A DNA stretch of 64,000 bases from an uncultured Gemmatimonadales bacterium. GTDB taxonomy: Bacteria; Gemmatimonadota; Gemmatimonadetes; Gemmatimonadales; Gemmatimonadaceae. The stretch covers positions 41,855 through 105,854 of the forward strand of contig CAWKNZ010000012.1 of NCBI GenBank assembly GCA_963851265.1. The letters run 5' to 3'. The notes beneath the pieces are model-generated. The model saw only the letters and a program-made list of their open reading frames with translations, was not told where the DNA came from and ran no database searches. Numbering within the stretch: position 1 is the stretch's first letter; every line of letters begins with the position of its first letter. The translations under genes were made by a program, and so were the position numbers. Shown here piece by piece: positions 1,754 to 60,194 of this stretch.

Positions 1754-3553
1754 ATGACCCGCCCTGCTGCATCCTCCCCGTCCACCGCCGACGCGGTCCT
1801 CTGGACCGCGCTCGACCAGGGAGTTCGGGCGCTACCGCTCCCCGCGCCCGCGGGCCTCTGCGAACTGCCGCTCGCCCGGCTTTCGCGCTACGAGCCCAAG
1901 CCCGACCCCGCGACCGGCCGGCTGGCGGAAGAAGAGTGGCTGCATGTCCACCGCGTGCGCGCGCTCAGCGGCCAGTGGTTCGCCGTCCGTATCGCCGGTG
2001 ATGCGGCGCTCGGCCTTCCCCGCGCCGGCGACTGGCCGGTCCTGATGGCCGTCGTGCGCCTGTTCGACGAGGCCGGATGGGCGAGCAACACCCTCTCCGA
2101 CGTCAGCATCCGCCGCCTCAACGCGACGATGGGCGTCACCGGCGGCGGGAAGATGATCCGCCGCGTCCGCGACGCCCTCCTCCGCTTCGCCCAGGTCCGC
2201 GTGCTGCTCGCGCCGATGGCGGCGACCGCCGACCCGGCCACCGCCCTCTCCGAACTGCTCGCGTCCGACGAGGCGAACGCGGCGTCCGCCGACGCCCCCG
2301 CCCCGGCCCTCTGGGCCCCCGCCGCGCTCGACCGCACGGCGGCCCGCGGAGCCCGCGCCCGCCGTGCCGGCGCCGACCCCGCGTCGGGCCCGGCGATGGG
2401 GCGTGGCACCGCGACCGGCGTGCTCGACGTGGCGTGGCGCGACGACACGCTCGACCGCATCACGCTCGCCGACGTCTGGCGTCCGCGGGCCGGCACCACG
2501 GCGACCACGTGGATGGACTACGAGCGCTACTTCGCGCTGGTCGATCCGGTCGCGCAGCGTCTCTACCAGCTCTACGCCGGCGCCGCCGCGCGCGGCGAGC
2601 CGCTCCCGTTCGAGCACGACCTCGAATGGCTCCGCTCCGCGCTCGGCCTCTCCCCGCGCTTCAAGCGCAGTCGGGTGCTCGAGTACCTCGCCGGAGCGAC
2701 CGCCGAGCTGCGTGAGGCGGGCATCCTCGGCGACGTGCTCATCGAGCCGCCTGGGCGCGCCGCCGACCGCCTCGTCGCGATGCCGGGGCCGGTGCTCGAG
2801 GCCGCCCGCCTCTTCGCCGGGCTCTCGCTCGAAGTGCCGCGCGACGCGCGCGTGCAGCTCGCCGCGCTGCAGGCGTTAGGCGTCCACCGCGCCGAGGCCG
2901 AGCGGCTGCTGCGCGCCGACCCGGCGCAGGTGTACGAGGTGCTGTGCTACGTGCTCTACGCGCGCCGGCACGAGCCCGACGCCATCCGCGACCCGGGCGC
3001 GTACGTCCGCCGCGCGGTGACCGAGGGCTACCGCTTCGCGAAGCCCGGCTACCAGACGTGGCGCGCCGGCGTCCAGCGCCGCTCGCTCGACCTCGTGCGC
3101 GCCCGTGCCGACCGCCCCGGCGCTGACCGCCCCGGCGCCGACCGCCCGGTGCCGGCCGGAGCGTCCGCCGCCCCCGACGTGCCATCCCCGAGCGCGCCCG
3201 CATCCGTTCCAGCGCCCGAGCCCGCGGTTCCCGTCGCGCCGTCGCCGGCGGGCGCGGAGGCCGACGCGGCCGCCCTGTGGCGTGGCGTGGCCGACGAGGT
3301 GCGCCGGCGTGTGGGCCCGCGCGAGTTGCGGCTGCTCTGGGTCACGACCCAGCTGCACCGCGTGGCCGGCGTCCGGCTCGAGGGGGCGGCGCTCGTCTGC
3401 GCCGTGCCCGACCTGGAGCTACGCGCCTGGGCCGCGAACGATGCGGGCCGCGCCCTGCTCGGCGACGCGGTCGCCGCGCTCACGGGCGGCAGCGTGACGC
3501 GCGTGATCGCCCGGGTGCCGGGCGACGTGGATCGGAGCGTCGACGACGGCTGA
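1754..3553 (+). CDS. Plasmid/chromid replication initiator (RepA/RPA-like) with C-terminal DnaA domain-I-like module
   Basis: True start inferred at ATG 1754 (MTRPAASS) inside ORF 446..3553. GLPRAGDWPVLMAVVRL...SIRRLNATMGVTGGGKMIRRVRDALLRF and YFALVDPVAQRLYQL resemble Rep initiators, and there is an IRDPGAYVRRAVTEGY motif. The C-terminal LWRGVADEVRRR...LVCAVPDLELRAWA resembles the DnaA N-terminal domain. Confidence 0.7.
   Translation: MTRPAASSPSTADAVLWTALDQGVRALPLPAPAGLCELPLARLSRYEPKPDPATGRLAEEEWLHVHRVRALSGQWFAVRIAGDAALGLPRAGDWPVLMAVVRLFDEAGWASNTLSDVSIRRLNATMGVTGGGKMIRRVRDALLRFAQVRVLLAPMAATADPATALSELLASDEANAASADAPAPALWAPAALDRTAARGARARRAGADPASGPAMGRGTATGVLDVAWRDDTLDRITLADVWRPRAGTTATTWMDYERYFALVDPVAQRLYQLYAGAAARGEPLPFEHDLEWLRSALGLSPRFKRSRVLEYLAGATAELREAGILGDVLIEPPGRAADRLVAMPGPVLEAARLFAGLSLEVPRDARVQLAALQALGVHRAEAERLLRADPAQVYEVLCYVLYARRHEPDAIRDPGAYVRRAVTEGYRFAKPGYQTWRAGVQRRSLDLVRARADRPGADRPGADRPVPAGASAAPDVPSPSAPASVPAPEPAVPVAPSPAGAEADAAALWRGVADEVRRRVGPRELRLLWVTTQLHRVAGVRLEGAALVCAVPDLELRAWAANDAGRALLGDAVAALTGGSVTRVIARVPGDVDRSVDDG
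3107..3149 (+). repeat. 15-bp in-frame tandem repeat x3 (ADRPG) in the Rep linker
   Basis: GCCGACCGCCCCGGC GCTGACCGCCCCGGC GCCGACCGCCCGG. Confidence 0.85.
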
Positions 3554-3617
3554 CGCCGCCGTGTCGGCGCGCCGAGCGCGTGCGGCGGCAACTCCGCCGG
3601 GGACGTAGCTTTGCGCG

Positions 3618-5111
<1,494 letters not shown>

Positions 5112-5119
5112 CGTCACGC

Positions 5120-6190
5120 ATGCCCGCAACCGTCACCACCACCGCGTTCGGCGCCGCGCCCGACGGGCGCGCCGTCGCCCTCCACACGCTCGACGCCGGC
5201 CCCGTCCGGGTCGGCGTGACGCCGTACGGCGCCCACCTCACCTCCATCGCGGTCCCCGACCGCGACGGCCGCCCCGCCGACGTCGCGCTCGGCTACGACG
5301 ACCTCGCCGGCTACGTCGCCGACACCGCCTACTTCGGCGCGCTCGTCGGGCGGTACGCCAACCGCATCGCGCGCGGCCGCTTCACGCTCGACGGCGCCGC
5401 GTACACGCTCGCGATCAACAACCCGCCTAACGCGCTGCACGGCGGCGTGGTCGGCTTCAACCGCGTGCTGTGGGACGCCGAGCCCTTCACGGCGGGCGGC
5501 GCGGCGGGCGTGGTACTCCGGCACACGAGCCCGGCGGGCGACCAGGGGTACCCGGGCGCGCTCGACGTGCGCGTGACGTACACGGTCACCGCCGACGCGC
5601 TCGCGATCGACTACCACGCGGCGGCCGACGCGCCCACCCCGGTGAACCTCACGCAGCACACGTACTGGAACCTCGCCGGCCACGCCGCGGGCTCGGTGCT
5701 GGAGCACGAGGTCACCCTCGGCGCGTCGCGCTTCACGCCGGTCGACGACACGCTGATCCCGACCGGCGAGCTGCGGGGGGTGGCCGGCACCCCCTTCGAC
5801 TTCCGGCGGCCGCACCCGATCGGCGCGCGCATCGACGCCGACGACGCGCAGCTCCGCGCCGGCGGGGGCTACGACCACAACTTCGTGGTCGACGCGCCGT
5901 CGCCCGGCGCGTTCGCCTTCGCGGCGCGCGTGTACGAGCCGCGCAGCGGGCGGGTCCTGGAAGTGCACACCACCGAGCCCGGCGTGCAGTTCTATTCGGG
6001 CAACATGATCCCCGACGGGCTCGCCGGAAAGGGCGGCGCGCGCTACGCCCGGCGCGGCGGCTTCGCCCTCGAGACGCAGCACTACCCGGACTCGCCCAAC
6101 GAGCCCGCGTTCCCGTCGACGATCGTCCGCCCGGGCGCGCCGTACGCCTCGCGGACCGTGTACCGCTTCTCGAGTCAGCCGGCGGGATGA
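5120..6190 (+). CDS. galM: Aldose 1-epimerase (galactose mutarotase)
   Basis: Motifs GRYANRIARG, NALHGG, NLTQHTYWNL, GYDHNF and ALETQHYPDSPN. ATG at 5120. Confidence 0.95.
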   Translation: MPATVTTTAFGAAPDGRAVALHTLDAGPVRVGVTPYGAHLTSIAVPDRDGRPADVALGYDDLAGYVADTAYFGALVGRYANRIARGRFTLDGAAYTLAINNPPNALHGGVVGFNRVLWDAEPFTAGGAAGVVLRHTSPAGDQGYPGALDVRVTYTVTADALAIDYHAAADAPTPVNLTQHTYWNLAGHAAGSVLEHEVTLGASRFTPVDDTLIPTGELRGVAGTPFDFRRPHPIGARIDADDAQLRAGGGYDHNFVVDAPSPGAFAFAARVYEPRSGRVLEVHTTEPGVQFYSGNMIPDGLAGKGGARYARRGGFALETQHYPDSPNEPAFPSTIVRPGAPYASRTVYRFSSQPAG

Positions 6191-8127: not shown

Positions 8128-10254
<2,127 letters not shown>

Positions 10255-10978: not shown

Positions 10979-11726
10979 GCCGCAAAGAAGCGAGGTTCTC
11001 GTCGTCCAGCAGGTCGCAAACGAGCCGCCGGGCACCCTCCTCCGCGCCCTCGCGGCGTCGGGGCTGGCCGCGCGCGTGCTGCACCCGTACGCGGGCGAGC
11101 CCGTTCCGGCCGACGCGTCCGGGTTGGGCGGGCTGGTCCTGCTCGGCGGCCCGCAGGCGGTGTACGAGCAGGACGCGCACCCGTTCCTCGCCGACGAGCT
11201 GCGCCTCGTGGACCGCGCCCTCGCGCGCGGCACGCCCGTGCTCGGCATCTGCCTCGGCGCGCAGCTGCTCGCGCACGCGTTAGGCGCCGCGGTGCGGCCG
11301 GGGGGCGCGGTCGAGATGGGGTGGCTGCCCGTGACGCTCACCGCGGCCGGACGCGCGGATCCGGTGTTGGGCCCGCTCGCGGCCGACGGCGGTCCGTCGG
11401 GCGGCGAGCCGTTCGTCCCCTTTCATCAGCACGGCGACGTGTTCGACCTGCCCGCGGGCGCGACGCTGCTGGCGCACTCCGAGCGTACGGCGCACCAGGC
11501 GTTCCTCGCGCGCGGCGCGGGCGGGGCCGCGGCGTACGGCGTGCTGTTCCATCCGGAGGTGGACGGCCCGCTGGTCGAGACCATGCTGGCCGAGTTCGGC
11601 GCGGCGGCGGCGGCGGCGGGGTGGGACGTGGACGCGATGCGGCGTGACGCGCCGGCCCGGCTGGCCGCGCTCGCGCCGCGCGCGGCCGGCCTGTTCGCGC
11701 GATGGGCCGCGCTCGGCACACGTTAG
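10977..11726 (+). CDS. Class I glutamine amidotransferase-like protein
   Basis: LLGGPQAVY, nucleophile GICLGAQL and FHPE triad motif. ATG at 10977. Confidence 0.92.
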   Translation: MPQRSEVLVVQQVANEPPGTLLRALAASGLAARVLHPYAGEPVPADASGLGGLVLLGGPQAVYEQDAHPFLADELRLVDRALARGTPVLGICLGAQLLAHALGAAVRPGGAVEMGWLPVTLTAAGRADPVLGPLAADGGPSGGEPFVPFHQHGDVFDLPAGATLLAHSERTAHQAFLARGAGGAAAYGVLFHPEVDGPLVETMLAEFGAAAAAAGWDVDAMRRDAPARLAALAPRAAGLFARWAALGTR

Positions 11727-11877
11727 GCGTCGGCCCATGTCGAGCCCGCCGCCGCGGGCGCGCGTCGCCCAACCGCCACGAAATCGTCGCGCCGCGCGGC
11801 CGGCCGAGGCACCGATTCTGCCGTCCCCGCCGGCGCGCGGGCGAGGGCGCCCGCATCACACCGGGAGGAACGGGACC

Positions 11878-12366
11878 ATGGCGATCAACGGACTTCAGGA
11901 ACTCTTCGTGCAGGGCATGCAGGCGGTGTACGACGCGGAGCAGCAGGGCATCAACGCCGCGCCCGCCATCGCCGACCGGGCGACGCACCCCGAGCTCAAG
12001 CAGAAGCTGCAGGAGCGCACCGACAAGGGGCGCCAGCAGGTGCAGCGGCTGGAGCAGGCCATCCAGCAGGCCGGCGGCACGCCGCGGGGCGAGCCTAACG
12101 AGATCGCGAAGGGCATCCTCGCGGTCGGCAACAAGATCATGAACGAGACGCAGGACCCCGACGCGCGCGACGCGGGCATCATCGCCGCGGCGCAGATCGC
12201 CCTGCACTACCACATGGCGGCGTACGGCACGCTGCGGTCGTACGCGGACGCGCTCGGCAACCAGCAGGCCTCACAGCTCCTGCAGCAGACGCTCGACGAG
12301 CGGAAGCGGCAGGACCAGGACATGTCGCGCCTGGCCGAGCAGGTGATCAACCCCAAGGCCGCGTAA
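11878..12366 (+). CDS. Ferritin-like DUF892 (YciE/YciF) stress protein
   Basis: LQELFVQGMQAVYDAEQQ...RDAGIIAAAQIALHYHMAAYGTL...LLQQTLDER. GGAGG RBS upstream. Confidence 0.88.
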   Translation: MAINGLQELFVQGMQAVYDAEQQGINAAPAIADRATHPELKQKLQERTDKGRQQVQRLEQAIQQAGGTPRGEPNEIAKGILAVGNKIMNETQDPDARDAGIIAAAQIALHYHMAAYGTLRSYADALGNQQASQLLQQTLDERKRQDQDMSRLAEQVINPKAA

Positions 12367-15632: not shown

Positions 15633-15662
15633 CCCGCGGGACGGCCTGGCCCGCGGGACCGC

Positions 15663-17924
15663 CTAACTCGCGAGCGCGCGTGCCCGCCGACGTCCGGCGG
15701 CAGCGCGCACGACCTCTGCCCGCTCCGCCGGGGCCGACACCGTGCCCGCGATCGAGCCCGACAGGTGGAACCGCTCGACCATGGCGCTGAGTGCCGCCGA
15801 CTGCCGGACGAGCACGCCGGCCGCGTTCGCGGCGTCGTCGGCGCCCGCCGCCGTGCGCTCGGTGACGCGGTGCACCTGGGCGACCTCGGTGCTGATGTGG
15901 GCGACGTCGTCGGCCTGGGCGCTGCTCGCGGCCGTGATCTCCCCGACGCGACCGGCCATCTGGTCCACGTCGGCGTTGATCTCGCGCAGGCTGCCGACCA
16001 CCTCCGCGTTCAGCGCCACGCTCCGGACCGCGGTCTCGGTCCCCTGGGCGATCAGCGTCGCGACCTGCCGGGCCGCTTCGGCCGATCGCTGAGCGAGGGC
16101 GCGCACCTCTCCGGCGACGACCGCGAAGCCACGCCCCGCGTCGCCCGCGCGCGCGGCCTCGACCGCCGCGTTCAGCGCCAGGAGGTTGGTCTGCAGCGCG
16201 ATCTCGTCGATCGTGCGGACGATCTGCGCCGTCGCTTCGCTCGAGCGGCGCATCTCGGCCATCGACTCGGAGAGGCGCTCCATACGGACCACGCCCCCCG
16301 CGGCCCGCTCCCGTGCCTGCTCCGCGAGGTTGCGCGCGTCGCCCGCGCTCGCCGCGCTGCTGCGCGCGGCGGCGGTCACGCGCTCGATACGCCCGGCGAC
16401 CGTCTGGAGACTCGACGCCTGCGCGCTCGAGCCCTGGGCGAGGGTGCGGCTGCCCGCCGTGATCTGCTCGCCCGCCGTCGCGACCTCGCCCGCCGCCGCG
16501 CGCACCTGGGCGAGTGCGCCGTCGAGCGTCCCGACCGCCCCGTTGAGCGCGGTCTGGATGGAGCCGTACGCGCCGTGGTACTCACCCGTCATGCGGGCCG
16601 AGAGGTCGCGGTCGGCGACGCGCTCGAGCACCGCGCGCGTGGCCTGCACCGGCGACTCGACCGCGCTGAGGGCGCGGTTCATCCCGGCCACGAGCTCTGC
16701 GAACGCGCCCTCGTAGCGCGTCGCGTCGGCGCGCTCGCTCAGGCGCCCGGCTTCCGCGGCGGTCGCCAGCGACGACACGTCGCTGGCGAGTCGCTGCAGC
16801 GTCGCGCCGAGCGACGCGAACCCTGCGCCGAGCCGGTCGTTGGCGCTGCGCGCCACGCACGCGACCGAGGTGTCTCCGGCGGCGAGACGCGTGGCCACGT
16901 CGGCGAACGCCCGCTCGGCCGCGGTGACGGCCGCGAAGGCCGCGGACACCTGCCCGACCTCGTCGTCGCGCTCGAGGGTCGGCACGCTCGCGTCGAGGTC
17001 GCCGACGGCGACGCGCCTGGCGACCGTGCTCAGCGCGGTCAGCGGGCCGAGCGCCCGGCGGGTGAAGCCCCACAGGAGCGCACAGCCGAGGACCGCGCAG
17101 AGCGCGGCGGCCGCGACGACGACGTTGGCCGCGTGACCGGCCGCATTCCGCGCGCTGGCTGCATACGGCGCGAACGGAAAGCCCGCGTAGATGATGCCGA
17201 TCACGGCGCCGGAGGCGTCGGTGATGGGCAGATACTGCGTGAACTCGTCGACACCCGCGACCGTGGCCCGGCCGTGGTACGCGCGGCCCGACGCGAAGGC
17301 CGCGCCGGCACCGGCCGGGCGGTGCGTCGCCGTGTCCTGCGCCGGCATCACCGTGAACACCGCACGCGTGGGGCGCCCGTGCGCGTCGGGGCGCGTGACC
17401 GTCGTCGCGAGGCGGAGCGCGCGCCCCATGGGCGCGGACCCGACCGTCGGGTCGGCGGACGGCGTCGCCGACGCACGCGGCGGCAGGCGGACGGCGACCG
17501 TGAACTCCGCGCCGGTGATCTCGGTGGCGCGGTCGAGCGCGTGCTGCACCACCGCGCGGCCGATCACGGGCGTGGTGCCCTTCGCGAGCAGGGCCGACAC
17601 CGACTCGGTGGTCCGGTACGGGTCCTTGCGGCCGTTGCCGTTGTAGAAGGCGAGCGCCGTGTCCCCGCCGGCGGGGCGCACGAGCGTCCAGGCGCCCGGC
17701 GCCGCGTCGTCGAGCAGCGCGCGCGCGGTACTGAGCGCGAACGAGAGGCGGTCGTCCGCCTGGGTGAGCTGTGCGCGGAGCGTCGCGTCGGCGATCTGCG
17801 AACGGGCGAAGAAGCCGACGACGGCGATGGTGAGGACGAGCGTCGCGGCGCTGATGCCGGCGATCCGTGTGCTGAGGCGGATGCGGAGCAATTGCCGCCG
17901 CAGCGCGGCAATGGTAGGAGGCAC
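15663..17924 (-). CDS. Methyl-accepting chemotaxis protein (Cache-type sensor, HAMP domains)
   Basis: Two TM segments, an extracellular YHGRATVAG...[18 protein letters not shown]ache motif, HAMP repeats and the signalling tip [34 protein letters not shown] start at 17924 is inferred. Confidence 0.92.
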
Positions 17925-18189: not shown

Positions 18190-19416
18190 ATGCCCCGTCG
18201 CCGTCCCGCCCTCGTCGCCCTGCTCGGCGCCGTCCTTGCCGCACCCGCCGCGTCCGCTCGTGCGCAGACCCCGGCCGGGCCAGCCGCTGTGCCTGCCGCC
18301 GACGACCCCATCAAGGGCCTCGTCGGCCGCCTCGACCTGGAGCGGTACAAGGCGACGATCAAGGGCCTCACGCAGTTCGGCGACCGGCGCCAGGGCACCG
18401 ACCGCAATCGCGCCGCCGTGGACTGGATCGAGGCCCAGCTCAAGAGCTACGGCTGCACCAACACCGAGCGGATCACGTACGACTACCAGCCGCCCCCGCC
18501 GCGGCCCGGGTCGGAGAACGCGTACCGTGCGCGTGTCGCGACGTCGGCGCCGGGCGGCGCGCGTCTCCGGGGCAGCCAGCTGCCGATCGGCGTGAACAGC
18601 GACTCGCTCGCGCAGCCCGACGCGCGGCTCCGCGCGCTGAACGCGCAGGCGAGCGCGCCGGGGCGGCGGCAGGAGGTGTACTGCACCAAGGTGGGGAGCA
18701 CGCACCCGGGCGAGATGTACATCGTGGGCGCGCACATGGACGGCATCGGCTGGGGCGAGGCCGCAAACGACGACGGGTCGGGCACCGCGCTCGTGATGGA
18801 GCTCGCGCGCGTGTTGTCCGCGCCCGACGTGCAGACGGACCGCTCGATCCGCTTCGTCCTGTGGAACAACGAGGAGACGGGGCTCAACGGCGCGCGCGCG
18901 TACGTGGAGCAGCGGCAGGCGTTGCAGGGCAAGGAGTCGCCCGCCGGGTCTGGGCGGTACCCCGAGCCGCGGTGGTTAGGCATGATCCAGCACGACATGA
19001 TGCTCTTCGACCACGGCATGCCCCGCCCCGACGGGACGATGAGCCGCGAGCAGCGCCCGGAAGCCGACGTGAACGTCGAGTTCCAGAGCGCCTCGAAGAT
19101 GGCCGCCGGGGCGCAGCAGCTGGCGTGGGCGCTCGCGAACGCGAACGAGGCGTACGCGACCGACTACCCGGCGACGGTGGGGCAGCACATGACCAACACG
19201 GACTCCGGGCCGTTCCAGGACCTCGTCCCGGCGGTCAGCCTGCGCGAGAACGAGCGCGGGTCGCAGATCGGCGCCGGGTGGGATCCGCAGTGGCACCAGC
19301 CGACGGACCTGTACGCGACCTACAACGACAGGGACTTCCGGCTGGGCCTCAACGCGGCGCAGACGACGTTAGGCGGGGTGGCGCGGCTGGCCGGGGCGAC
19401 GATGCGGGGCCGGTGA
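18190..19416 (+). CDS. Secreted M28 family metallopeptidase
   Basis: Signal peptide, GAHMD, ANDDGSG, NEETGL, HDMM and WHQPTD zinc-ligand motifs. Start may be 18184. Confidence 0.9.
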
Positions 19417-19418
19417 GC

Positions 19419-21287
19419 ATGAACACCCGCCGCCAGTTTCTCGTCCGCGCGCCGCTCGGCGTCGCCGGCGCGCTCGCCGCCTGCCGCCACGCGCCCGCGT
19501 CCGAGTCCCAGCCGCCCGTACCCGGCCCGGGCGGTACCCCGACCGGAGCCCCCGCCGCCGCGCCCGCCGCCGCGCCCGCCGGGGCGCCGGCAGGCGCGCC
19601 GCCCGCGTTCAACACCGCGCCCCCGGTCGGGCCCGAGGTGTCGACGGCCACGTTCGCGGAGGCGGAGAAGCTGATGCAGGTGCAGCTCACCCCCGCGCAG
19701 CGGCGCATGGCCGCCGACAGCTGGCGCACGTCGATGGCGCCTCTGGTGGAGCGGCGCACCGGCCCCAAGAAGCTCGCGCTCCCCGACGGGCTCGCGCCCG
19801 CGACCCGCTGGACGCCCGGCGTCGGCGGGGAGCCGATGGGGGCGGCGCGCGACCGCTTCGTGCGCACCCCGGCCGACTCCGCTCCGCTCCCGACGAGCGA
19901 TGCCGACATCGCCTACGCGCCGGTGACGCGCCTCTCGCGCTGGATCGAGTCGCGCCAGCTCACCTCCGAGCGCCTCACGCGCATCTACCTCGAGCGCATC
20001 CGGCGCTACGACCCGAAGCTGCGCTGCGTCATCACCCTGGTCGCCGACGCGGCGATGGTCGAGGCGCGGCGTGCGGACGCCGAGATCGCCGCCGGGCGCT
20101 ACCGCGGGCCGCTGCATGGTGTGCCGTACGGCGTGAAGGACCTGCTCGACACCGCGGGCGTTCGCACGACTTGGGGTGCGGAGCCGTTCCGCGACCGGGT
20201 GCCGAACGCGGACGCGGCCGTCGTGGCGCGGCTGCGCGCCGCGGGGGCGGTGCTCGTCGCCAAGCTCAGCCTCGGCGCGCTCGCACTCAACGACATCTGG
20301 TTCGGCGGGCAGACGATGAACCCGTGGCTCCTGGAGGAAGGCGCGTCGGGGTCGAGCGCGGGGCCCGGCGCGGCGACCGCGGCTGCGCTCGTCGGGTTCT
20401 CGGTGGGGAGCGAGACGGGCGGCAGCATCATCAGCCCGAGCATGCGTTGTGGCGTGACGGGACTCCGCCCGACGTACGGCCGCGTCGCGCGCACGGGCGC
20501 GATGACGCTCGCCTGGTCGCTCGACAAGCTCGGGCCGATGACGCGGAGCGTGGAGGACGCGATGCTGGTGCTGCAGGCGATCACCGGCCCCGACGCGGGC
20601 GACGTGGCGAGCGTGCCGAGCCGGCTCGACTACGACGCGACCGCGGGAGTGCGGGGGCTGCGCGTGGGGTACGTGCCGGCGTGGATGCGGGAGGCGCCCG
20701 CCACCGACGTCGACCGCGCCGCGCTCGACGCGGTGCGCGCGTTAGGCATGACCGCGGTCCCGGTCACCTTCCCCGACTGGCCCTACGACTCGCTCAACCT
20801 GGTGCTCTTCGCGGAGGCCGCGGCGGCGTTCGAGGAGTTGACGCTGAGCGGGCGCGCGGACCAGCTGCGCGCGCAGGTGCCCGACGCGTGGCCCAACCTG
20901 TTCCGCGAGGCGCGCTTCCTCTCGGCCGTGGACTTCGTGCAGACCGACCGCCTGCGGCGTCGCGTCGCGGAGGAGATGGGGCGCGTCATGTCGCAGGTCG
21001 ACCTGCTGCTCGTGCCTTCGCTGCGCGACGAGATGCTCGTGATCTCGAACAACACCGGGCACCCGTCGCTCACGCTCCGCACGGGGTTCGTGCGCGTGGC
21101 CGAGGCGCGCAGCGACTGGGCGCCCGACCCGGCCCACCCGCTGCCCAGGTTCGACCCGCCGCGGCGCGTGCCGCACGGCGTGACGCTCATCGGGCGGCTG
21201 TTCGACGAGGGGACGATCGCGCGCGCGGGGCTGGCGCTCGAGCGCGCGTCGGGGGTGGTCGCCGAACGGCCCCCGCAGTTCGCCTGA
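19419..21287 (+). CDS. Amidase-signature enzyme with Tat/lipoprotein-like signal
   Basis: MNTRRQFL...LAAC, GPLHGVPYGVKDL, SGSSAG and GSETGGSI. Confidence 0.92.
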   Translation: MNTRRQFLVRAPLGVAGALAACRHAPASESQPPVPGPGGTPTGAPAAAPAAAPAGAPAGAPPAFNTAPPVGPEVSTATFAEAEKLMQVQLTPAQRRMAADSWRTSMAPLVERRTGPKKLALPDGLAPATRWTPGVGGEPMGAARDRFVRTPADSAPLPTSDADIAYAPVTRLSRWIESRQLTSERLTRIYLERIRRYDPKLRCVITLVADAAMVEARRADAEIAAGRYRGPLHGVPYGVKDLLDTAGVRTTWGAEPFRDRVPNADAAVVARLRAAGAVLVAKLSLGALALNDIWFGGQTMNPWLLEEGASGSSAGPGAATAAALVGFSVGSETGGSIISPSMRCGVTGLRPTYGRVARTGAMTLAWSLDKLGPMTRSVEDAMLVLQAITGPDAGDVASVPSRLDYDATAGVRGLRVGYVPAWMREAPATDVDRAALDAVRALGMTAVPVTFPDWPYDSLNLVLFAEAAAAFEELTLSGRADQLRAQVPDAWPNLFREARFLSAVDFVQTDRLRRRVAEEMGRVMSQVDLLLVPSLRDEMLVISNNTGHPSLTLRTGFVRVAEARSDWAPDPAHPLPRFDPPRRVPHGVTLIGRLFDEGTIARAGLALERASGVVAERPPQFA

Positions 21288-22730: not shown

Positions 22731-22804
22731 CACGGTCCTCTCTCGAGTGTTGGGGGGGACGGAGCGACGCGATGCGCCCGGACGTGGCTCCCGTCACACA
22801 CGGC

Positions 22805-35829: not shown

Positions 35830-35842
35830 CGGTCTGTCCCGC

Positions 35843-36925: not shown

Positions 36926-36929
36926 CGCG

Positions 36930-42541: not shown

Positions 42542-42565
42542 GCGCGTGTTAGGCTGTCTGCCGGG

Positions 42566-44026: not shown

Positions 44027-45418
44027 TCAGAGGCGGTTGAAGCCCGCGAGCGCCGCCACCTTGTACGCTTCGGCCAGCGTGGGGTAGTTGAACACGGTGT
44101 CGCGGAAGTACTCGATCGTGCCGCCGAGGGCGAGCACCGCCTGCCCGATGTGGATCAGCTCCGTGGCCCCGTCGCCGATCGCGTGCACGCCGAGCAGGCG
44201 CAGCGTGTCGGGGTCGAAGAGCAGCTTGAGCATCCCCGTCTCGTCGCCGAGGATCTGCCCCTTCGCGAGCTCCTCGTACTTGGCGATCCCCACCTCGTAC
44301 GGCACCCGCGCCTCGGTGAGCTGCTCCTCCGTCTGCCCGACCATCGACATCTCGGGCACGGAGTAGATGCCGTAGGGCAGCAGCTCCCGCGCGGCGACCG
44401 TCGCCGGCGCGCCGAACATGTGGGCACCCGCGAGCCGCCCCTGCTCGTTGGACGACGAGGCGAGCGACGGGAAGCCGATCACGTCGCCCGCGGCGTAGAC
44501 GTGGGGCACCGCGGTCCGGCCCCACGCGTCCACGGCGAGCTTGCCGCGCGCGTCGGGCGTTAGGCCGGCCGCGCCGAGGTTCAGCAGGTCGGTGTTCGCC
44601 TGACGCCCGACGGTGTAGAGCAGCGCGTCGCTGTGCACGCGTTTCCCGCTCTCGAGCAGCGCCTCCACGCGGCCCCGCTCGTCGAGGCGGACCGACGCGA
44701 CCGTCTCGCCGAGGCGGAACGTGGAGCCGCGCCGCCGCATGTGGTAGAGCAGGCCGTCGATCAGCTCGCGGTCGACGAAGTCGAGCAGGGTCGGGCGCTG
44801 ATCGATGATCGTGACCTTGATGTCGAGCGCGGTGAACATCGACGCGTACTCCAGCCCGATCACCCCCGCGCCGACGACGATGAGCTCGCGCGGGAGATCG
44901 GTCACGCCGGGCAGCTGGTCGGCGTCGAAGATGCGCTCGCCGTCGAGCGGGATCTGGGTGCTGCGGGCGGCGCGCGTGCCGCACGCGATGAGCACGTGGG
45001 CCGCGCGCACCAGGCTCGCGGCCCCGGCCGACGAGAGCACCTCGATCGTGTGCGGGTCGACGAAGCGCGCGGTGCCCGCGAGCGTCGTGATCCCGTTGCG
45101 CCGGAGCTGGTTGCGCACCACCTCGGTTTGCCGGCCCACCACCGCGTTCACCCGGTGGGCGAGATCCTTGGCGGAGATGCTGCTGCTGACGACGTAGTCC
45201 TTGCCGTAGAACGTGCGCTGCCGGAACCCGCTGAGGTAGAGAATCGCCTCGCGCATCGTCTTGCTCGGGATGGTGCCCGTGTGGATGCACACGCCGCCGA
45301 CCATCTCCTGCCGGTCGATGATCGCGACGCGCCGCCCGAGCTTGGCCGCGGCGATGGCGCCCTTCTGCCCCGCCGGGCCGCTGCCGATCACGACGAGATC
45401 ATAGTCGTACGTGTCCAT
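44027..45418 (-). CDS. sthA: Soluble pyridine nucleotide transhydrogenase
   Basis: GSGPAGQKGA, the STH-type CIHTGTIPSK (CxxxxT), GAGVIGLEYASMF and C-terminal FNYPTLAEAYKVAALAGFNRL. Confidence 0.92.
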   Translation of the reverse strand: MDTYDYDLVVIGSGPAGQKGAIAAAKLGRRVAIIDRQEMVGGVCIHTGTIPSKTMREAILYLSGFRQRTFYGKDYVVSSSISAKDLAHRVNAVVGRQTEVVRNQLRRNGITTLAGTARFVDPHTIEVLSSAGAASLVRAAHVLIACGTRAARSTQIPLDGERIFDADQLPGVTDLPRELIVVGAGVIGLEYASMFTALDIKVTIIDQRPTLLDFVDRELIDGLLYHMRRRGSTFRLGETVASVRLDERGRVEALLESGKRVHSDALLYTVGRQANTDLLNLGAAGLTPDARGKLAVDAWGRTAVPHVYAAGDVIGFPSLASSSNEQGRLAGAHMFGAPATVAARELLPYGIYSVPEMSMVGQTEEQLTEARVPYEVGIAKYEELAKGQILGDETGMLKLLFDPDTLRLLGVHAIGDGATELIHIGQAVLALGGTIEYFRDTVFNYPTLAEAYKVAALAGFNRL

Positions 45419-48431: not shown

Positions 48432-48601
48432 GGGCGCGTCCCGTATGCAAGCGCCACGCGCGGCGCGTCGAGACGTGCGGCGCTCGGTCATTCGGCGGCG
48501 CGGCGCGCGCCTTCCACAGCGGCAGGTTCACCTTCGCCCGTGGTACTGGCCGCGGAGCGTCGGATGGCGGAGGATATCGCGACCCGTCCGGTCGCGCGCG
48601 T

Positions 48602-48946: not shown

Positions 48947-49350
48947 GGGCACCAACGGGAGAGGGGTGAGCGTCGGACGGTCCGCGGCCACGCACCGCCT
49001 CCGACGCAGGATGTACGCAGGATGTACGGTGGTGTCGAACCGGGAGGGCAGCGGCGCGAGCCGGCGTCGAACACGACGATGCCGGAACGACCGGGCGCGA
49101 TCGGCGGCGCAGACTCGTGCACCATCATACGTGATGCGCGTCCGGGGAGGATCGGTGCGCACGACGGAACCACTTCCGGCGGACCGGACGGTGCCAATCG
49201 CGTCATCCCGGGGGCGGGCATTGCCCGCCGCCGGGCGTCGACGTACATACGGACCAGTCCCCCTGCGCGAAGCGCCTAACACGATCGCATCGCATGCACA
49301 CCGCCGGTCCGTCATCCCCGCCCGCGCCGCCGATCGCCCGCGACGTCCGT

Positions 49351-49529
49351 AACCGGGAGCTGGTGCTCCGGCTGCGGGCGTCGGGGGTCGCCCCGTCCAC
49401 ACCACCGTGCTCGGCGAGCGGTTCGTGATCCACGTCGCGATCACGAACCACCGCACGCGCCGCCCCGGCCTCGGTCGCTTCACGGGCGCGGCGCGCGCGA
49501 CCGGCGGCGAGCTCCGGCGCTTCGCCTAA
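49351..49529 (+). pseudogene. Remnant of the C-terminus of a PLP-dependent (group II) amino acid decarboxylase
   Basis: Manual translation gives NRELVLRLRASGVAPS, a one-base frameshift near 49397, then HTTVLGERFVIHVAITNHRTRR...ATGGELRRFA-stop. There is no upstream body or start. Confidence 0.65.
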
Positions 49530-49552
49530 CGGAACCGCTCCCCGCCCCGGCG

Positions 49553-50480: not shown

Positions 50481-51377
50481 ATGTCGCCAACACCCTCGCA
50501 GCCCTCCGGCCACCTCCGACGCGTGGCGGTCTTCACGACCGATCCTGAGGGCGGCAATCCCGCCGGCGTCTGGGTCGGCGACACCCTGCCGGATGCAGCC
50601 GCGATGCAGCGCATCGCCGCCGACGTCGGGTACTCCGAGACCGCGTTCGTGGCCCCGGCAGGCGGCACGCAGCGCGAGGTGCGGTACTTCAGCCCCGAGG
50701 CGGAGGTCCCGTTCTGCGGTCACGCCACGGTGGGTGCCGGAGCCGTGCTCGGCGAGGCGAACGGGAACGGGACGTATCACCTGTCGACGTCGGTCGGTGT
50801 CGTTCCGGTCGTCGTGCGCACGCGTGACGGCGTGCGGGAGGCGTCGCTCACGTCCGTCGTCCCCCGACACACGGCCGCCGACTCCGTACTCGTCGGCGAC
50901 ATCCTCGACGCGCTCGGCTGGGACGCCAGCGAGCTCGATCCTGCCATCCCGCCTGCGCGCGCGTACGCCGGGGCCTGGCACCTCGTCCTCGCCGCCGCGG
51001 CGTCGGAGCGGCTGGCGCGACTGACCTACGACTTCGACCGCGTCAAGCGGCTCATGCTCGACGCCGGGCTCACGACCCTGCAGCTCGTCTGGCGCGAGTC
51101 GCCGACGGTGTACCACGCGCGGAACCCGTTCCCCGTCGGCGGCGTGGTCGAGGACCCTGCCACCGGCGCGGCGGCCGCGGCGCTCGCGGGCTACCTCCGC
51201 GACAGCGGACTCCTCGCCGTGCCGGCGCGGGTGCACGTGCGCCAGGGAGAGGCGATGGGGCGGCCGAGTCACCTCGTCGTCGACGTCCCGGCGCAAGGCG
51301 GGATCGTCGTCACCGGTGCCGTGGTCCCCATGCCGGACCCGCATGAGCCCGCCCGTGCGGCCTCGGACGGCCGTTAG
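50481..51377 (+). CDS. PhzF family epimerase/isomerase
   Basis: GGNPAGV, SETAF, EVPFCGHAT, EDPATGAA and QGEAMGRPS. Confidence 0.93.
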   Translation: MSPTPSQPSGHLRRVAVFTTDPEGGNPAGVWVGDTLPDAAAMQRIAADVGYSETAFVAPAGGTQREVRYFSPEAEVPFCGHATVGAGAVLGEANGNGTYHLSTSVGVVPVVVRTRDGVREASLTSVVPRHTAADSVLVGDILDALGWDASELDPAIPPARAYAGAWHLVLAAAASERLARLTYDFDRVKRLMLDAGLTTLQLVWRESPTVYHARNPFPVGGVVEDPATGAAAAALAGYLRDSGLLAVPARVHVRQGEAMGRPSHLVVDVPAQGGIVVTGAVVPMPDPHEPARAASDGR

Positions 51378-51463
51378 GCATTCGACGTTGGCTGCGACTC
51401 GGCGCGTGCATCGGACTCCACCGACGACCGCGGTTGCGGGCGCCCCACTCACCCGTTCTCACC

Positions 51464-53730: not shown

Positions 53731-55197
53731 TCAAGCGCCTAACACGTCGCGCAGGACGTCGACGCCCTGCCGCAGGGCGACCTCGTCGAGCGGCGCGTAT
53801 CCCAGCAGCAGCGCGCCGTCGGCCGCGCGCGGCGCGACGTGGTACATCGAGAGCGGCGGCGCTTCCACGCCGCGCGCGGCGAGCGCCGCCGACACCGCCG
53901 CGTCGCTCCGCCCCGCGGGAAGCCAGCCGAGGAGATGCAGGCCGGCCGCCGCGGGACGGAGGGTGACCCGGCCCCGCAACTCGCGTTCGGCGAGCGCCAC
54001 GAGCGCCGCCTGGCGGGCCGCGTACAGCGTCCGCATCCGCCGGACGTGCCGCGCGAAGTGCCCGTCGATGATGAAATCCGCGAGCACCGCCTGCTCGAGC
54101 GGCGACGCGGAACCGGCCGCGAACGCGCGCGCGCGTGCGAACGGTTCGATCAGATCGCGTGGGACGATCAGGTACCCGATCCGGAGTGACGGGAACACCG
54201 TCTTGCTGAACGTGCCGACGTAGAGCACGCGCCCGTCCGGGTCCAGCCCGTGGAGCGCCGGCAGCGGGTGGCCGGCGAACCGGTACTCGCTCTCGTAGTC
54301 GTCCTCGACGATCCACGCGCCGGCCGCACGCGCCCACCGCAGCAGCGCGTCGCGTCGCGCGCGACTCATCACCACCCCGAGCGGAAACTGGTGCGACGGG
54401 GTCGTGTAGACGAGCCGCGCCCGGGGGGCGATGCGTACGCCCTCGGCGACGTCGAGCCCCTCCGCGTCGACGGGCACAGGCACCACGCGTGCGCCGGCGA
54501 TGGTCAACACGCCGCGCATCCCGAGATAGCCGGGATCCTCCATCCACGCTGCATCGCCGGGATCGAGCAGGACCTGCGCGGCGAGGGTCAGCGCCTGTTG
54601 CGCGCCGCTCGTGACGAGCACCTGCGCCGGATCGCAGTGCACGCCGCGCGCGGTGCCCACGTAGGCGGCGATCGCCTCGCGCAGCGGGCGGTACCCGAAC
54701 GCCTCGCCGTGGTCGAGGAATTCGAGCGACACGCGCTGGGCCCGTCGCGCGGCGAGGCGCGCCCAGAGGTCGACCGGGAACCGGTCGAGCGCCGGCGTGC
54801 CGTGGCGGAACGGACGCGGCGCGAGTCCCAGGCGCGGCATCCCGTCGCTCAGCAGCGCCGTCCGGGCGCCGCGTCGGGCGATCGCCGGCCGCGCCGCCTC
54901 CTCCGGTCGTGCGCCTAACGGATCGCTCGGCGCCTCGGCGCGCACGAGGTCGTCCGGCGGCTGCGGCGCGACTCGCGTGCCCGCGCCCGGGCGCCCGCGG
55001 AGGTAGCCTTCCGCGGCGAGCTGCGTAACCGCCAGGAGGACCGTGTTGCGGGACACGCCGAGGTCCGCCGCGAGCGCGCGCGTCGAGGGGACGCGATCGT
55101 GCGGACGCAACCGGCCGGCGACGACGGCGTCGCGCACCGCGCCGTAGATCTGCCGGTGGAGCGGCTCCCGCGCCGACCGGTCGAGGGTGACCGACAA
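53731..55197 (-). CDS. MocR/GabR family PLP-dependent transcriptional regulator
   Basis: GntR HTH (PLHRQIY...PSTRALAADLGVSRNTV) plus TPSHQFPLG, EDDYESEY and GTFSKTVFPSLRIGY. The start is uncertain; TTG 55197 is the nearest candidate. Confidence 0.92.
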   Translation of the reverse strand: MSVTLDRSAREPLHRQIYGAVRDAVVAGRLRPHDRVPSTRALAADLGVSRNTVLLAVTQLAAEGYLRGRPGAGTRVAPQPPDDLVRAEAPSDPLGARPEEAARPAIARRGARTALLSDGMPRLGLAPRPFRHGTPALDRFPVDLWARLAARRAQRVSLEFLDHGEAFGYRPLREAIAAYVGTARGVHCDPAQVLVTSGAQQALTLAAQVLLDPGDAAWMEDPGYLGMRGVLTIAGARVVPVPVDAEGLDVAEGVRIAPRARLVYTTPSHQFPLGVVMSRARRDALLRWARAAGAWIVEDDYESEYRFAGHPLPALHGLDPDGRVLYVGTFSKTVFPSLRIGYLIVPRDLIEPFARARAFAAGSASPLEQAVLADFIIDGHFARHVRRMRTLYAARQAALVALAERELRGRVTLRPAAAGLHLLGWLPAGRSDAAVSAALAARGVEAPPLSMYHVAPRAADGALLLGYAPLDEVALRQGVDVLRDVLGA

Positions 55198-57883: not shown

Positions 57884-59689
57884 GTGGACAGGCCAGTCGA
57901 TTTTCTGGAGGCAGCACAGCCCGAGTTCGAGCGCCGCGCCGAGGCGGCCGAAGCGTCCACCGGCGTCGACCGCCGCGAGTTCCTCTTCCGGTCGCTCGTC
58001 ACCGCCGCCGCGGGGACGCTCGGCGCCGGGCCGGCGCTGCTCGCCGCGCAGCCGCCGACGCGCCCGTCCAACGCCGCGTCCGCCGCCGCCCAGCCGGCAG
58101 TGCCGCCGTTCCCGCTCGGCAATGGGGAGCCGCCGGCCGAGCAGTTCATGCCGTATCCGGGGGGCACGGGTGCGCTGATGGAGCAGCTCGTGCGCGAGCA
58201 CGGCGCTGCGGCGTTCGCGCGCGGCACGTTCCGCGTGGCGCCGTGGACCGGTCCGGTGCCGACGAGCGACGAGGACGTCGCGTTCCTCCCCGCGCACCGC
58301 CTGTCGGCGTTGCTGAAGGAGCGGAAGATCACGTCCACGCGGCTCACGCGGATCTACCTCCAGCGGCTCCAGCGGCTCAACCCCACGCTCCGGTGCGCCG
58401 TCACCGTCATGGAGCCGCAGGCGCTCGCCGAGGCGGCGCGCGCCGACGTCGAGATCGCCGCCGGGCGGTACCGCGGCCCGCTGCACGGGATCCCGTACGG
58501 GGTGAAGGACCTGTTCGCGACGAAGGGCGTGCCCACCACGTGGGGCGCGCGTGACTTCGAGGGGCGCGTTCTCGACGAGGACGCGGAAGTGGTGGCGCGG
58601 CTGCGCGATGCCGGCGCGGTGCTCATCGCGAAGCTCGCGACCGGGCTGTTCGCGCAGAACGACCAGTGGTTCGGGGGGCGCACCAACAACCCGTGGAACC
58701 TGTCGTTAGGCTCGAGCGGCTCGTCCGCCGGCCCGGCGTCGGCGACCGCGGCGGCGTGCGTCGCCTTCGCCATCGGGACCGAGACGCAGGGATCGATCGT
58801 GTCGCCGGCGCTGCGCTGCGGCACGAGCGCGCTCCGGCCGACGTTCGGGCGGGTGAGCCGTGCCGGGGGAATGGTGCTCGCGTGGACGCAGGACCGCGTG
58901 GGGCCGCTCACCCGCACGGCCGAGGATGCCGCGATGGTCTTCCACGCCATCCACGGCGCCGACCCGAAGGATCCGTCGACGGTGACGACGCCGTTCCACT
59001 TCGATCCGGCGATCACGGTGTCGTCGCTGCGCATCGGCGTCGACCCGAGCGCGCCGAAGGAGTTCGTGGACGGGCTGCGCGCGCTCGGCATGCGGCCGGT
59101 CGCGATCGGCGCGCGTCCCACGGTCCCCGGCGTCGGCCAGGGCAGCCTGAACGTCGAGTACGCGGCGGCGTTCGACGACTACGTGCAGCGCAAGGCGAAG
59201 GAGATCGGGCTCGACCTCAACACCGTCGTCACACCGACGACCAACGGCGCCCCGTTCCCAGGCACGTCGCCCACTGCGACGGCCGGGACCCCCATGGCGC
59301 CGGCGGACTGGAACCCACGCTTCGTGAACGGACGCACCGTGAAGGCGTTCGAGTTCGTGCAGAACCAGCGACGCCGCTACGTGCTGGTGTCGCGTTGGGC
59401 GGAGTTCATGAAGGATCTCGACATGTTCATCGGCGCGCCGCTGGCCGACGTTGCCGCCAATGCACAGACCGGGCACCCGTGCGTGGTCGTCCCGTACAAG
59501 TTCGACGTGCCGACGCCCCCCGGCCCGCCGGGCGGCGCGGCCCAGCCGGCGCCCGGCGCCGAGGCGCTGCGGCCGCAACCGATCGGGGCGGTCATCACGG
59601 GCGCGCTCTACGCCGACGACCGCATCCTCTCGGTCGCCCATCAGTTCGAGGCGCACTCGGACGTGCATCTGAAGCGGCCCGTGGTGTGA
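57884..59689 (+). CDS. Amidase-signature enzyme with Tat-like motif
   Basis: DRREFL plus a hydrophobic stretch, GPLHGIPYGVKDL, SGSSAG and GTETQGSI. Confidence 0.9.
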   Translation: MDRPVDFLEAAQPEFERRAEAAEASTGVDRREFLFRSLVTAAAGTLGAGPALLAAQPPTRPSNAASAAAQPAVPPFPLGNGEPPAEQFMPYPGGTGALMEQLVREHGAAAFARGTFRVAPWTGPVPTSDEDVAFLPAHRLSALLKERKITSTRLTRIYLQRLQRLNPTLRCAVTVMEPQALAEAARADVEIAAGRYRGPLHGIPYGVKDLFATKGVPTTWGARDFEGRVLDEDAEVVARLRDAGAVLIAKLATGLFAQNDQWFGGRTNNPWNLSLGSSGSSAGPASATAAACVAFAIGTETQGSIVSPALRCGTSALRPTFGRVSRAGGMVLAWTQDRVGPLTRTAEDAAMVFHAIHGADPKDPSTVTTPFHFDPAITVSSLRIGVDPSAPKEFVDGLRALGMRPVAIGARPTVPGVGQGSLNVEYAAAFDDYVQRKAKEIGLDLNTVVTPTTNGAPFPGTSPTATAGTPMAPADWNPRFVNGRTVKAFEFVQNQRRRYVLVSRWAEFMKDLDMFIGAPLADVAANAQTGHPCVVVPYKFDVPTPPGPPGGAAQPAPGAEALRPQPIGAVITGALYADDRILSVAHQFEAHSDVHLKRPVV

Positions 59690-60194
59690 CCACGCGTCTC
59701 GCGAGCCGCTCGACGCCCTGCCGTCGGCAGGCGGAGCGGCCCGCGTGCGCCGGGACCGGTGTCGAGAGCAGAATGGGGCGCCGGAACAGCCGAGCGCCGC
59801 GCGTGGCCTTTCGGCCCCGCGGAGCATGGCCCGTCGGCAGGCGCGGCCCGCCGCAGCGTGAGAGACGACGTCGTCCACGGTGCGACCGTGAATCGGCGCA
59901 TCCCGTGGTGCCCCACGCTCGGGCGGGTGTGCCGCGCAGCGCCTACTGCGGGGCCGGTTTCGGCACGGTATGTGTCCTCGGGGCAGGAAGGCGAGAAAAC
60001 GTGCCCGCTCTGGTGGAATGATCACGGCCCAGTATGCCACGACGACACGCGGAAAACGCACGGGTCAATGTCGTACCCGGGGCGGCGTGAGGCGGCGATA
60101 CGCGGCGGAAAGCCGGTTAGGCAGTGTGCGTGTAGAGCGTTCTACAGCGATGGGTTGCCCCGTGCAGAACGGTACAATTACCTCGGTCGGCCGG

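Follow-up and report, generated by a model that had tools for sequence, protein, structure and literature searches.

A hyper-abundant heptamer of Gemmatimonadales, kept at the DNA level, behaves most like uptake sequences and HIP1 and is spelled like the integron R box

To our knowledge, enrichment of a single word to the extent described here is known only from biased DNA uptake, i.e. the uptake signal sequences (USS) of Pasteurellaceae and the DNA uptake sequences (DUS) of Neisseriaceae, and from HIP1 (GCGATCGC) of cyanobacteria, and we know of hyper-abundant genome words with a known reader in these two proteobacterial families only. In Neisseriaceae the DUS is read by the minor pilin ComP. 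Such words have been treated in the literature (PMC5861425, PMC3458573), and HIP1, whose function was long obscure, is now being linked to natural transformation (PMC13756078, 10.1101/2024.09.10.611283). Here we describe the heptamer GTTAGGC in a stretch of 64,000 nucleotides (hereafter the window) from an uncultured Gemmatimonadales bacterium of the family Gemmatimonadaceae. The window corresponds to positions 41,855 to 105,854 of contig CAWKNZ010000012.1 (G000:C12:41855-105854) of the source genome G000 (4.60 Mb, 12 contigs, 73-74% G+C). An earlier note, made from the letters of the window alone, had put the heptamer forward as a candidate undescribed genome-wide DNA signal. Our analysis demonstrates that the word is real, is maintained at the DNA level and is drive-like, with a behaviour closest to that of uptake sequences and HIP1 and a spelling like that of the integron R box. 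The epithet undescribed also holds for the literature searched, as no description of the word was found in main texts queried with the heptamer, with integron or attC plus the phylum, and with uptake sequences or iterated words plus Gemmatimonadota or Gemmatirosa.

The window contains 27 exact copies between positions 2875 and 60122, 16 on the + and 11 on the - strand. Dinucleotide-preserving shuffles of the window (n=100) give a mean of 1.99 copies (sd 1.50, maximum 7), and 0 of 100 reached 27. The extended form CGTTAGGC is present in 21 of the 27 copies, with 0.97 expected, and of the 57 TTA and TAA trinucleotides on the + strand 27 (47%) lie inside the word. These recounts reproduce the figures of the earlier note, i.e. 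the number of copies on each strand, the number of extended copies and the estimate that about half of all TTA and TAA fall into this one context. Its assignment of contexts stands for 13 TTA-GGC, 3 CCT-AAC and 1 GGC-CTA-AC copies, whereas the 7 stop codons and 3 intergenic copies were recounted as 6 and 4. The count differs by one because the copy at 49274 would be the TAA of an open reading frame (ORF; 48413-49279) which is not called as a gene here; its product has no Pfam match.

Throughout G000 the heptamer occurs 1,762 times, with a density of 0.33-0.55 per kb on each of the 12 contigs. Nested counts (TTAGG 1,925; TTAGGC 1,794; GTTAGGC 1,762; CGTTAGGC 1,396) show how exact the word is: G precedes 98% of all TTAGGC (1,762/1,794), and one-letter AT-rich variants are found in 8-120 copies each. 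The word holds 29% of the 6,001 TTA of the genome, and no other 5-mer is as exceptional as TTAGG under a maximal-order Markov model (1,925 versus 613, z 53). Copies are spaced at random, on average one per 2.6 kb or so (coefficient of variation, CV, 1.07; mean 2,592 bp; median 1,806 bp). Neighbouring pairs at most 45 bp apart account for 19 of 1,750 spacings, and about 8 of them form hairpins at gene ends. A second exceptional family, AGCG-N-CT, leads the 7-mer Markov test of the same genome (AGCGCCT 2,075 versus 1,040 expected, AAGCGCT 635 versus 234); this excess may be a codon-pair effect.

The enrichment persists genome-wide when codons and amino acids are preserved. Genes were called by a codon log-odds model trained on long ORFs with a high G+C content at third codon positions (GC3), which yielded 3,711 genes (89% of G000), and the Pfam matches of 47 window proteins agree with the calls. 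Shuffling of synonymous codons within each of the 3,711 genes (n=10) gives 41.4 sense and 34.4 antisense copies (maxima 53 and 58), compared with 1,012 sense and 284 antisense copies observed, i.e. 1,296 versus about 76. This null is conservative because the TTA codons supplied by the word are retained in it. The word is 17- to 25-fold over the codon-aware null and is neutral to orientation and reading frame. Tabulation of TTA usage further supports the special context noticed in the window: GGC comes after 996 of the 1,320 TTA codons of G000 (75%), and TTA makes up 11.05% of Leu codons before GGC, whereas ahead of nine other codons its share is 0.03-1.8%. The genome has a tRNA-Leu(UAA) gene.

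The 1,762 copies comprise 987 sense xxG-TTA-GGC, 206 antisense CCT-AAC, 78 antisense GGC-CTA-AC and 25 sense GTT-AGG-C copies, together with 187 on stop codons and 279 in spacers (16% of copies, spacers being 10.7% of bases). The word encloses 123 of 434 TAA stops (as GCC-TAA-C, 28%) and 82 of 746 TAG stops (as GT-TAG-GC, 11%), and 14 sites each form the stop of two convergent genes. Word stops are natural protein ends, as in the window gene 3618-5111, which encodes 497 residues and whose HATPase_c domain extends to residue 493. Among dipeptides the word fills 987 of 12,759 Leu-Gly and, on the opposite strand, 206 of 1,899 Pro-Asn. At ready sites, where the flanks already fit, the filling is the same in both orientations, with 775 of 2,881 (27%) for sense Leu-Gly and 175 of 662 (26%) for antisense Pro-Asn. 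Spacer copies of G000 have a pyrimidine preference at -1 (C73/T16/G6/A4) and a purine preference at +7 (G53/A25/C18/T5; background 37/13/37/13); the preference recurs in all other copy classes, and positions further out than -1 and +7 are uninformative. In full the word is therefore YGTTAGGCR, and its upkeep is at the DNA level. Equal sense and antisense filling, the same flank preferences in spacers as in genes, and stops in both orientations support maintenance at the DNA and not the protein level, as the earlier note had proposed.

We then compared relatives, counting a genome as rich when its 8-mer count exceeds twice that of the reversed control. Ten of 31 relatives are rich: the 5 of the genus without exception, the further family members G008, G012 (6,360 copies), G017 and G018, and G030 from a different family. 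An even sampling of the phylum (401 genomes) contains 16 rich ones, all within one order and not forming one clade. Family f1 contributes 13 of its 94 genomes (nine genera), family f2 contributes 3 of 166 (all of genus g75), and the remainder of the sample 0 of 141. Word-poor unpublished genomes are included (G011 in the searches of relatives, the rpoB tree and the codon alignment; G079, G118 and G199 in the 401-genome sample). Genus g42 has three rich species (G236, G293 and G397, 3,479-4,141 copies) and one poor species, G289 (66), and genus g75 shows a graded series of word abundance. Five species of the genus carry the word, as do numerous further assemblies and a finished PacBio plasmid, plasmid 1 of Gemmatirosa kalamazoonensis KBS708 (NZ_CP007129.1, 1.106 Mb), which has 892 copies versus 50 of the control (0.81 per kb). 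A quick maximum-likelihood tree of RpoB (25 of 27 sequences) does not unite the rich lineages g1, (G012, G018) and G030. A search with a window protein gave no close named relative, the best match being a Longimicrobium metagenome-assembled genome (71%), and in one soil sequencing run the share of sampled words present is 0.23.

Between species of one genus the word turns over quickly. G001 and G000, over 48.4 kb aligned at 81% identity, share 11 sites, with 19 found only in G001 and 11 only in G000; over 39.9 kb aligned, G004 and G000 share 11, with 24 only in G004 and 5 only in G000. Sister species keep 50-69% of G000 sites, the value for any 7-mer being 30-33%, and the commonest alternative state at word sites is GCTCGGC, two changes off. 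The word also recurs at identical sites in unrelated rich lineages. Copies in rpoB number 0 in 19 of 19 poor genomes, 10 in G012 and 1-2 in G000, G001, G003, G004 and G030. Based on a codon alignment of 19 of the 27 sequences, GCG-TTA-GGC occupies the same RpoB Ala-Leu-Gly in genus g1 and in G012, and GGC-CTA-ACG the same Gly-Leu-Thr in G012 and in G030, which belongs to another family. In G012 changes that make the word alter RpoB amino acids at conserved positions (LPD to LPN, RLA to RLG). Finally, the word is densest in genes of the most native codon usage: in G000 genes with GC3 below 0.87 have 0.12 copies per kb and those above 0.95 have 0.49, and the share of dipeptide opportunities used rises from 3.5% to 13.5% over the same range. 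This gradient is opposite to the prediction from base composition and is expected if accumulation goes with recombination or residence time.

We tentatively favour the explanation that YGTTAGGCR is a hyper-abundant word kept by a molecular drive that is tied to the exchange of DNA, as in the case of uptake sequences or HIP1. A protein on the route of uptake or recombination of own-kind DNA would prefer fragments bearing the word, alleles spelling it by chance would be passed on more often, and point substitutions would spread it where the cost to the protein is small, i.e. at Leu-Gly, at Pro-Asn on the opposite strand, at TAG and TAA stops and in spacers. We infer that the biased step is DNA uptake or another transfer step. 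The reading is based on the strength and exactness of the enrichment, its neutrality to orientation, the lack of replication polarity, the rapid turnover, the convergence in rpoB, the GC3 gradient, the presence of ComEC and PilT (each in 31 of 31 relatives, rich and poor alike), the hairpin pairs, which uptake sequences also form in terminators, and the analogy with HIP1. Coupling of the drive to conjugation is unsupported, since the coupling protein of type IV secretion systems (PF02534) was found in only 3 of the 31 relatives (G004, G015 and G016).

Like the present word, USS and DUS are single short words of exact spelling that occur on both strands and lack replication polarity, in hundreds to thousands of copies at roughly one per 1-3 kb; they favour cheap reading frames, sometimes at an amino-acid cost, form some inverted pairs at gene ends, are denser in native genes and are patchy among related genera. 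With HIP1 the word shares hyper-abundance, spread by substitution and a lineage-wide occurrence with secondary absences. HIP1, in contrast, is palindromic, methylated by dedicated methylases and quasi-periodic, whereas the present word is non-palindromic and randomly spaced, and no matching methylase or methylation was found.

Several observations weigh against exchange-coupled drive. ComEC and PilT occur equally in the 21 poor relatives and therefore explain nothing about which genomes are rich. Four of the seven prepilin-like proteins of G000, queried in three rich and two poor genomes, show no rich/poor pattern, i.e. a rich-specific pilin was not found with these four queries. The word core of 7-9 bp differs from USS and DUS and belongs to another phylum, Gemmatimonadota, for which no report of natural transformation was found in the literature searched. 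While uptake sequences of Neisseriaceae and Pasteurellaceae diverge into dialects, the same word is present in three families, and the one poor genome sampled, G006 (400 kb, 67.6% G+C), has no substitute word (top z about 10, versus 41-51 in an equal-size sample of G000). Terminator-type pairs are few, as the 19 close pairs among 1,750 spacings indicate. Nor does a reader acting only outside the cell predict the longest word-free stretch of G000 (C1:182876-227962, 45 kb), for which the mean density predicts about 17 copies and a GC3-corrected estimate 9.4 genic copies (gene GC3 0.907 versus 0.926). This stretch is not an island, as it carries pgm, gidA, parA, parB and mnmE, and the sequence alignable to it has 2 copies in G004 and 1 in G001, compared with 35 per 39.9 kb and 30 per 48.4 kb in sequence aligned elsewhere. 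Finally, the word and its flanks equal the attC R box of the order, which points to a different kind of reader.

GTTAGGC is the canonical integron core site, a match that the earlier note does not mention. The consensus of the site is GTTRRRY, which a random 7-mer would fit, both strands considered, with a probability of about 0.2%. The same seven letters make up the R' box of 46 attC sites (72-142 bp) from cassette arrays in genomes of the order that are poor in the word, and in six stretches of poor genomes 46 of 65 word copies have GCCTAAC (R'') 35-170 bp upstream. Same-strand runs of the word in poor genomes, which were also considered as a repeat-domain gene, proved to be these cassette arrays. 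Two of the runs abut the integrase gene intI, one at G021:C80 (intI pieces at 6419-7300, copies at 90-5802) and one at G019:C26. The flanks agree as well: R' boxes have C96 at -1 and G61/C22/A15/T2 at +7, R'' boxes read on the other strand have T96 at -1 and G61/A20/C15/T4 at +7 (A follows R'' in 96%), and a pyrimidine before and a purine after are common to attC boxes and dispersed copies. G000 itself has attC sites on C6 and C10, which read GCCTAACG...CGTTAGGC.

Long cassette arrays with very uniform attC sites are present in word-poor genomes at G021:C95:1-24000, G021:C80, G021:C43, G375:C2 and G019:C3, and one 90-bp attC type is common to two genomes of different genera. In G000 the region C10:186000-206000 (L167) is a cassette array of small same-strand ORFs and attC sites, interspersed with transposase genes of the IS481 and IS110 families. 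Integrons are listed for Gemmatimonadota in a review (PMC8618304).

Based on this identity, an integron integrase or another R-box-specific protein might read the word, with the dispersed copies being secondary recombination or docking sites or a by-product; we regard this as unlikely, though slightly less so than the other alternatives. The letters are those of the R' and R'' boxes of attC and the R box of attI, and real attC sites with such boxes exist in G000 and its order. However, the dispersed copies are single half-sites lacking a partner box, L boxes, a cassette or a nearby intI: neighbouring pairs in -/+ arrangement 40-160 bp apart account for only 8 of 392, mostly in the cassette regions of C6 and C10, and none of the 27 window copies has an attC-type partner box. 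The window copies lie in ordinary metabolic and sensor genes, neither in a cassette array nor beside intI. Moreover, no known integrase activity writes synonymous substitutions into genes.

The integrase as driver was rejected since its presence does not track richness. Of the 10 rich relatives 5 have an IntI above the cut-off, as do 13 of the 21 poor ones, and it is full-length and unbroken in only 3 of the 10 rich ones; it is intact in the rich genomes G300, G293, G236 and G319 and also in the poor G289, which has two or three copies. The sole intI of G000 (C6:3005-6044, L166) is split, with residues 2-265 and 260-313 lying 2 kb apart around an insert with a large serine recombinase gene (Resolvase, Recombinase and zinc-ribbon domains). 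In G001 a fragment with a stop is left, and in G012, the richest genome, the gene lies in three frames. More specific versions, in which whatever reads the word shares its specificity with the integron machinery, strike us as distinctly unlikely. In these an integrase-type protein would use the roughly 1,800 dispersed R boxes (205 on stops) as crossover or docking points, or DNA import would be tuned to the integron core such that cassettes are favoured and the word spreads as a by-product.

Since three species of the genus have the depletion around gidA and parAB in common, an intracellular effect is suggested. The word might then be an architectural or repair signal under direct selection, such as a nucleoid site or a strand-discrimination or nicking site, each copy being weakly useful, and the random spacing of about one copy per 2.6 kb as well as the occurrence on all 12 contigs and on the 1.1-Mb Gemmatirosa plasmid are in line with this. 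Selection per site would be very weak, yet codon bias is overridden at a quarter of the ready sites and RpoB residues are altered in G012. Only 50-69% of G000 sites are kept in sister species against the 30-33% of any 7-mer, and all 19 poor relatives live without the word in rpoB. The depletion is also not simply positional. Non-alignable inserts of G004 in the desert region carry the word (the 80 kb hold 26 copies, of which just 2 fall into desert-alignable sequence) and raw counts in G300 and G319 show no depletion around gidA, so that a purely positional effect is not supported. Together these data make an intracellular signal of this kind improbable.

The desert was also considered as a ParB zone, and this idea was dropped as the canonical parS was not found with up to 2 mismatches and the 2 hits with 3 mismatches lie elsewhere. 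Directly upstream of parA, gidA is bordered by a palindrome of 16 bp, TGTGGCACGTGCCACA, with perfect copies at C1:192709 and C1:195715 and one with two mismatches at 186276. It is found at the same two places in G004 and G001 and was not found around gidA in G300 and G319; it is probably the parS of this genus.

Gains of the word are rapid, lineage-specific and convergent, which would also be consistent with a context-specific mutation or repair bias, i.e. mismatch correction turning near-matches into the word with no DNA transfer. TTG-GGC is mildly raised in agreement with this (5.4% of Leu before GGC, versus 1.7-3.6% before most codons). The usual precursor, however, is two positions off (CTC to TTA), and one mismatch-specific enzyme can therefore not supply both changes. 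The changes needed go from G/C to A/T, presumably opposite to Vsr-type repair, and no neighbouring word is visibly drained. Such repair usually goes together with a cytosine-5 methylase (PF00145), and in 9 of the 10 rich relatives none was found. We thus consider a repair bias to be a rather poor candidate.

PF00145 was found in only 3 of the 31 relatives, with a partial copy in the rich G018, which also speaks against a methylation-linked word, either HIP1-like or the site of an orphan or restriction methylase. A non-palindromic 7-mer has the format of many type IIS, IIG and III sites; restriction sites, though, are usually avoided and not enriched. The effect of HIP1 on transformation is reported to depend on methylation (PMC13756078, 10.1101/2024.09.10.611283). 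The methylome of Gemmatirosa kalamazoonensis obtained by sequencing single molecules in real time (SMRT) lists only RGATCY, ATGCAC and CCAGN7TCA (PMC3974934). The word is not a published methylation motif of this rich relative, being absent from the methylome despite its 892 copies on plasmid 1; SMRT detects 5-methylcytosine poorly, and 5-methylcytosine in Gemmatirosa remains compatible with the methylome. A methylation-linked origin is very unlikely.

A polar signal for recombination or segregation, i.e. Chi (read by RecBCD or AddAB) or a KOPS-type guide for FtsK, is suggested by length and frequency. In E. coli Chi occurs about once per 4.5 kb, and like Chi, KOPS and architecture-imparting sequences the word is short, non-palindromic, over-represented and scattered through genes. 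Those sequences are strongly co-oriented with replication and enriched few-fold, unlike the present word, which is non-polar and enriched far more. Because the GC skew of G000 is too weak to define replichores, a replichore was set from the switch in gene strand and a skewed 8-mer: at about 1.37 Mb of C2 both gene orientation and the G-rich 8-mer GAAGGGCG switch strand, which makes this a possible terminus with GAAGGGCG as a KOPS-like guide word. Within C2 0-1.37 Mb the sense:antisense ratio is 155:47 in + genes (77%) and 126:40 in - genes (76%), and spacer copies are divided 29:28. The word thus has no polarity within this putative replichore, a result that is conditional on the indirectly inferred replichore, for which GC skew gives no independent confirmation. 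Orientation tracks the supply of dipeptides only and not replication, and the absence of strong strand bias reported in the earlier note holds alike for + and - genes. The earlier note did not recognise the word as Chi, HIP1 or a KOPS-type site, and indeed it is unlike Chi and KOPS in having no polarity and unlike HIP1 in being no palindrome and having no methylase found; a polar signal appears highly improbable.

Virtually no weight is left for a signal at the level of protein or translation (the rare TTA as with bldA), for scattered DtxR/IdeR iron boxes or for an assembly or sequencing artefact, which are refuted for the bulk of the copies. The word does hold 75% of TTA codons with a tRNA-Leu(UAA) gene at hand, and the heptamer occurs in iron-box papers; however, 44% of the copies are antisense, on stop codons or in spacers, ready sites are filled equally on both strands, word-ended genes are full-length, and the word is present in five species of the genus, many assemblies and the finished PacBio plasmid. 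An iron box, a 19-bp palindrome around the heptamer, does not fit flanks that hold no information past -1/+7 and have T at +7 in only 5%.

The 27 copies of the window illustrate the contexts site by site. Sense TTA-GGC copies begin with that at 2875..2881 (+, CGTTAGGCG, GCG-TTA-GGC, Ala-Leu-Gly) in the gene 1754-3553, followed by 11279..11285 (+, CGTTAGGCG, GCG-TTA-GGC) in the GATase gene 10923-11726. The peptidase M28 gene 18184-19416 has two, at 18975..18981 (+, GGTTAGGCA, TGG-TTA-GGC) and 19368..19374 (+, CGTTAGGCG, ACG-TTA-GGC). Further copies lie at 24570..24576 (-, CGTTAGGCA, CCG-TTA-GGC) in the glycosyl hydrolase 2 gene 24153-26057 (-), at 31259..31265 (+, CGTTAGGCC, ACG-TTA-GGC) in the molybdopterin oxidoreductase gene 29523-32087 and at 35706..35712 (+, CGTTAGGCG, ACG-TTA-GGC) in the GFO/IDH/MocA gene 34318-35829. 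The GntR-aminotransferase gene 53731-55197 (-) again has two, at 53737..53743 (-, TGTTAGGCG, GTG-TTA-GGC) and 54913..54919 (-, CGTTAGGCG, CCG-TTA-GGC). Each of the three amidase paralogues of the window carries the word as TTA-GGC: the gene 19413-21287 at 20741..20747 (+, CGTTAGGCA, GCG-TTA-GGC), the gene 38438-40099 at 39112..39118 (+, CGTTAGGCA, GCG-TTA-GGC) and 39457..39463 (+, CGTTAGGCG, GCG-TTA-GGC), and the gene 57884-59689 at 58705..58711 (+, CGTTAGGCT, TCG-TTA-GGC).

Antisense CCT-AAC (Pro-Asn) copies are located at 5425..5431 (-, CGTTAGGCG) in the aldose epimerase gene 5120-6190, at 12093..12099 (-, CGTTAGGCT) in the DUF892 gene 11878-12366 and at 25494..25500 (+, CGTTAGGCC) in the above glycosyl hydrolase 2 gene; the antisense GGC-CTA-ACG (Gly-Leu-Thr) copy is at 44559..44565 (+, CGTTAGGCC) in the pyridine-nucleotide-disulphide oxidoreductase gene 44027-45418 (-). 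Two copies form TAA stops as GCC-TAA-C on the + strand, at 5106..5112 (-, CGTTAGGCG) in the histidine kinase gene 3618-5111 and at 35824..35830 (-, CGTTAGGCC) in the GFO/IDH/MocA gene. TAG stops are formed as CGT-TAG at 11722..11728 (+, CGTTAGGCG) in the GATase gene, at 22803..22809 (-, CGTTAGGCC) in the TPR gene 22805-23653 (-) and at 51373..51379 (+, CGTTAGGCA) in the PhzF-like gene 50523-51377, and as AGT-TAG at 15661..15667 (-, AGTTAGGCG) in the chemoreceptor gene 15663-17891 (-). The spacer copies are those at 42548..42554 (+, TGTTAGGCT) between the genes 42122-42541 and 42566-44014, at 49274..49280 (-, TGTTAGGCG), a spacer by the gene calls and otherwise the TAA stop mentioned above, at 49524..49530 (-, CGTTAGGCG) upstream of the gene 49553-50452, and at 60116..60122 (+, GGTTAGGCA) downstream of the amidase gene 57884-59689.

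For genome annotation the word matters directly, since in G000 75% of TTA codons lie in it, as do 28% of the TAA and 11% of the TAG stops, and it can mislead searches for attC sites. Beyond the two proteobacterial families and HIP1, YGTTAGGCR is a third case of a hyper-abundant word, no weaker than the others, from a soil phylum that is abundant and has been little studied. It comes with a cultured carrier, Gemmatirosa kalamazoonensis KBS708, with rich and poor species within one genus (G289 versus G236, G293 and G397), with convergent gains at the same codons and with exact identity to the integron crossover site. If either integron version were true, this would be the first tie of a self-tag to the gene-cassette system and would bear on the origin of cassettes. 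The word makes it testable whether soil Gemmatimonadota swap DNA by a sequence-selective route, and which protein reads it.

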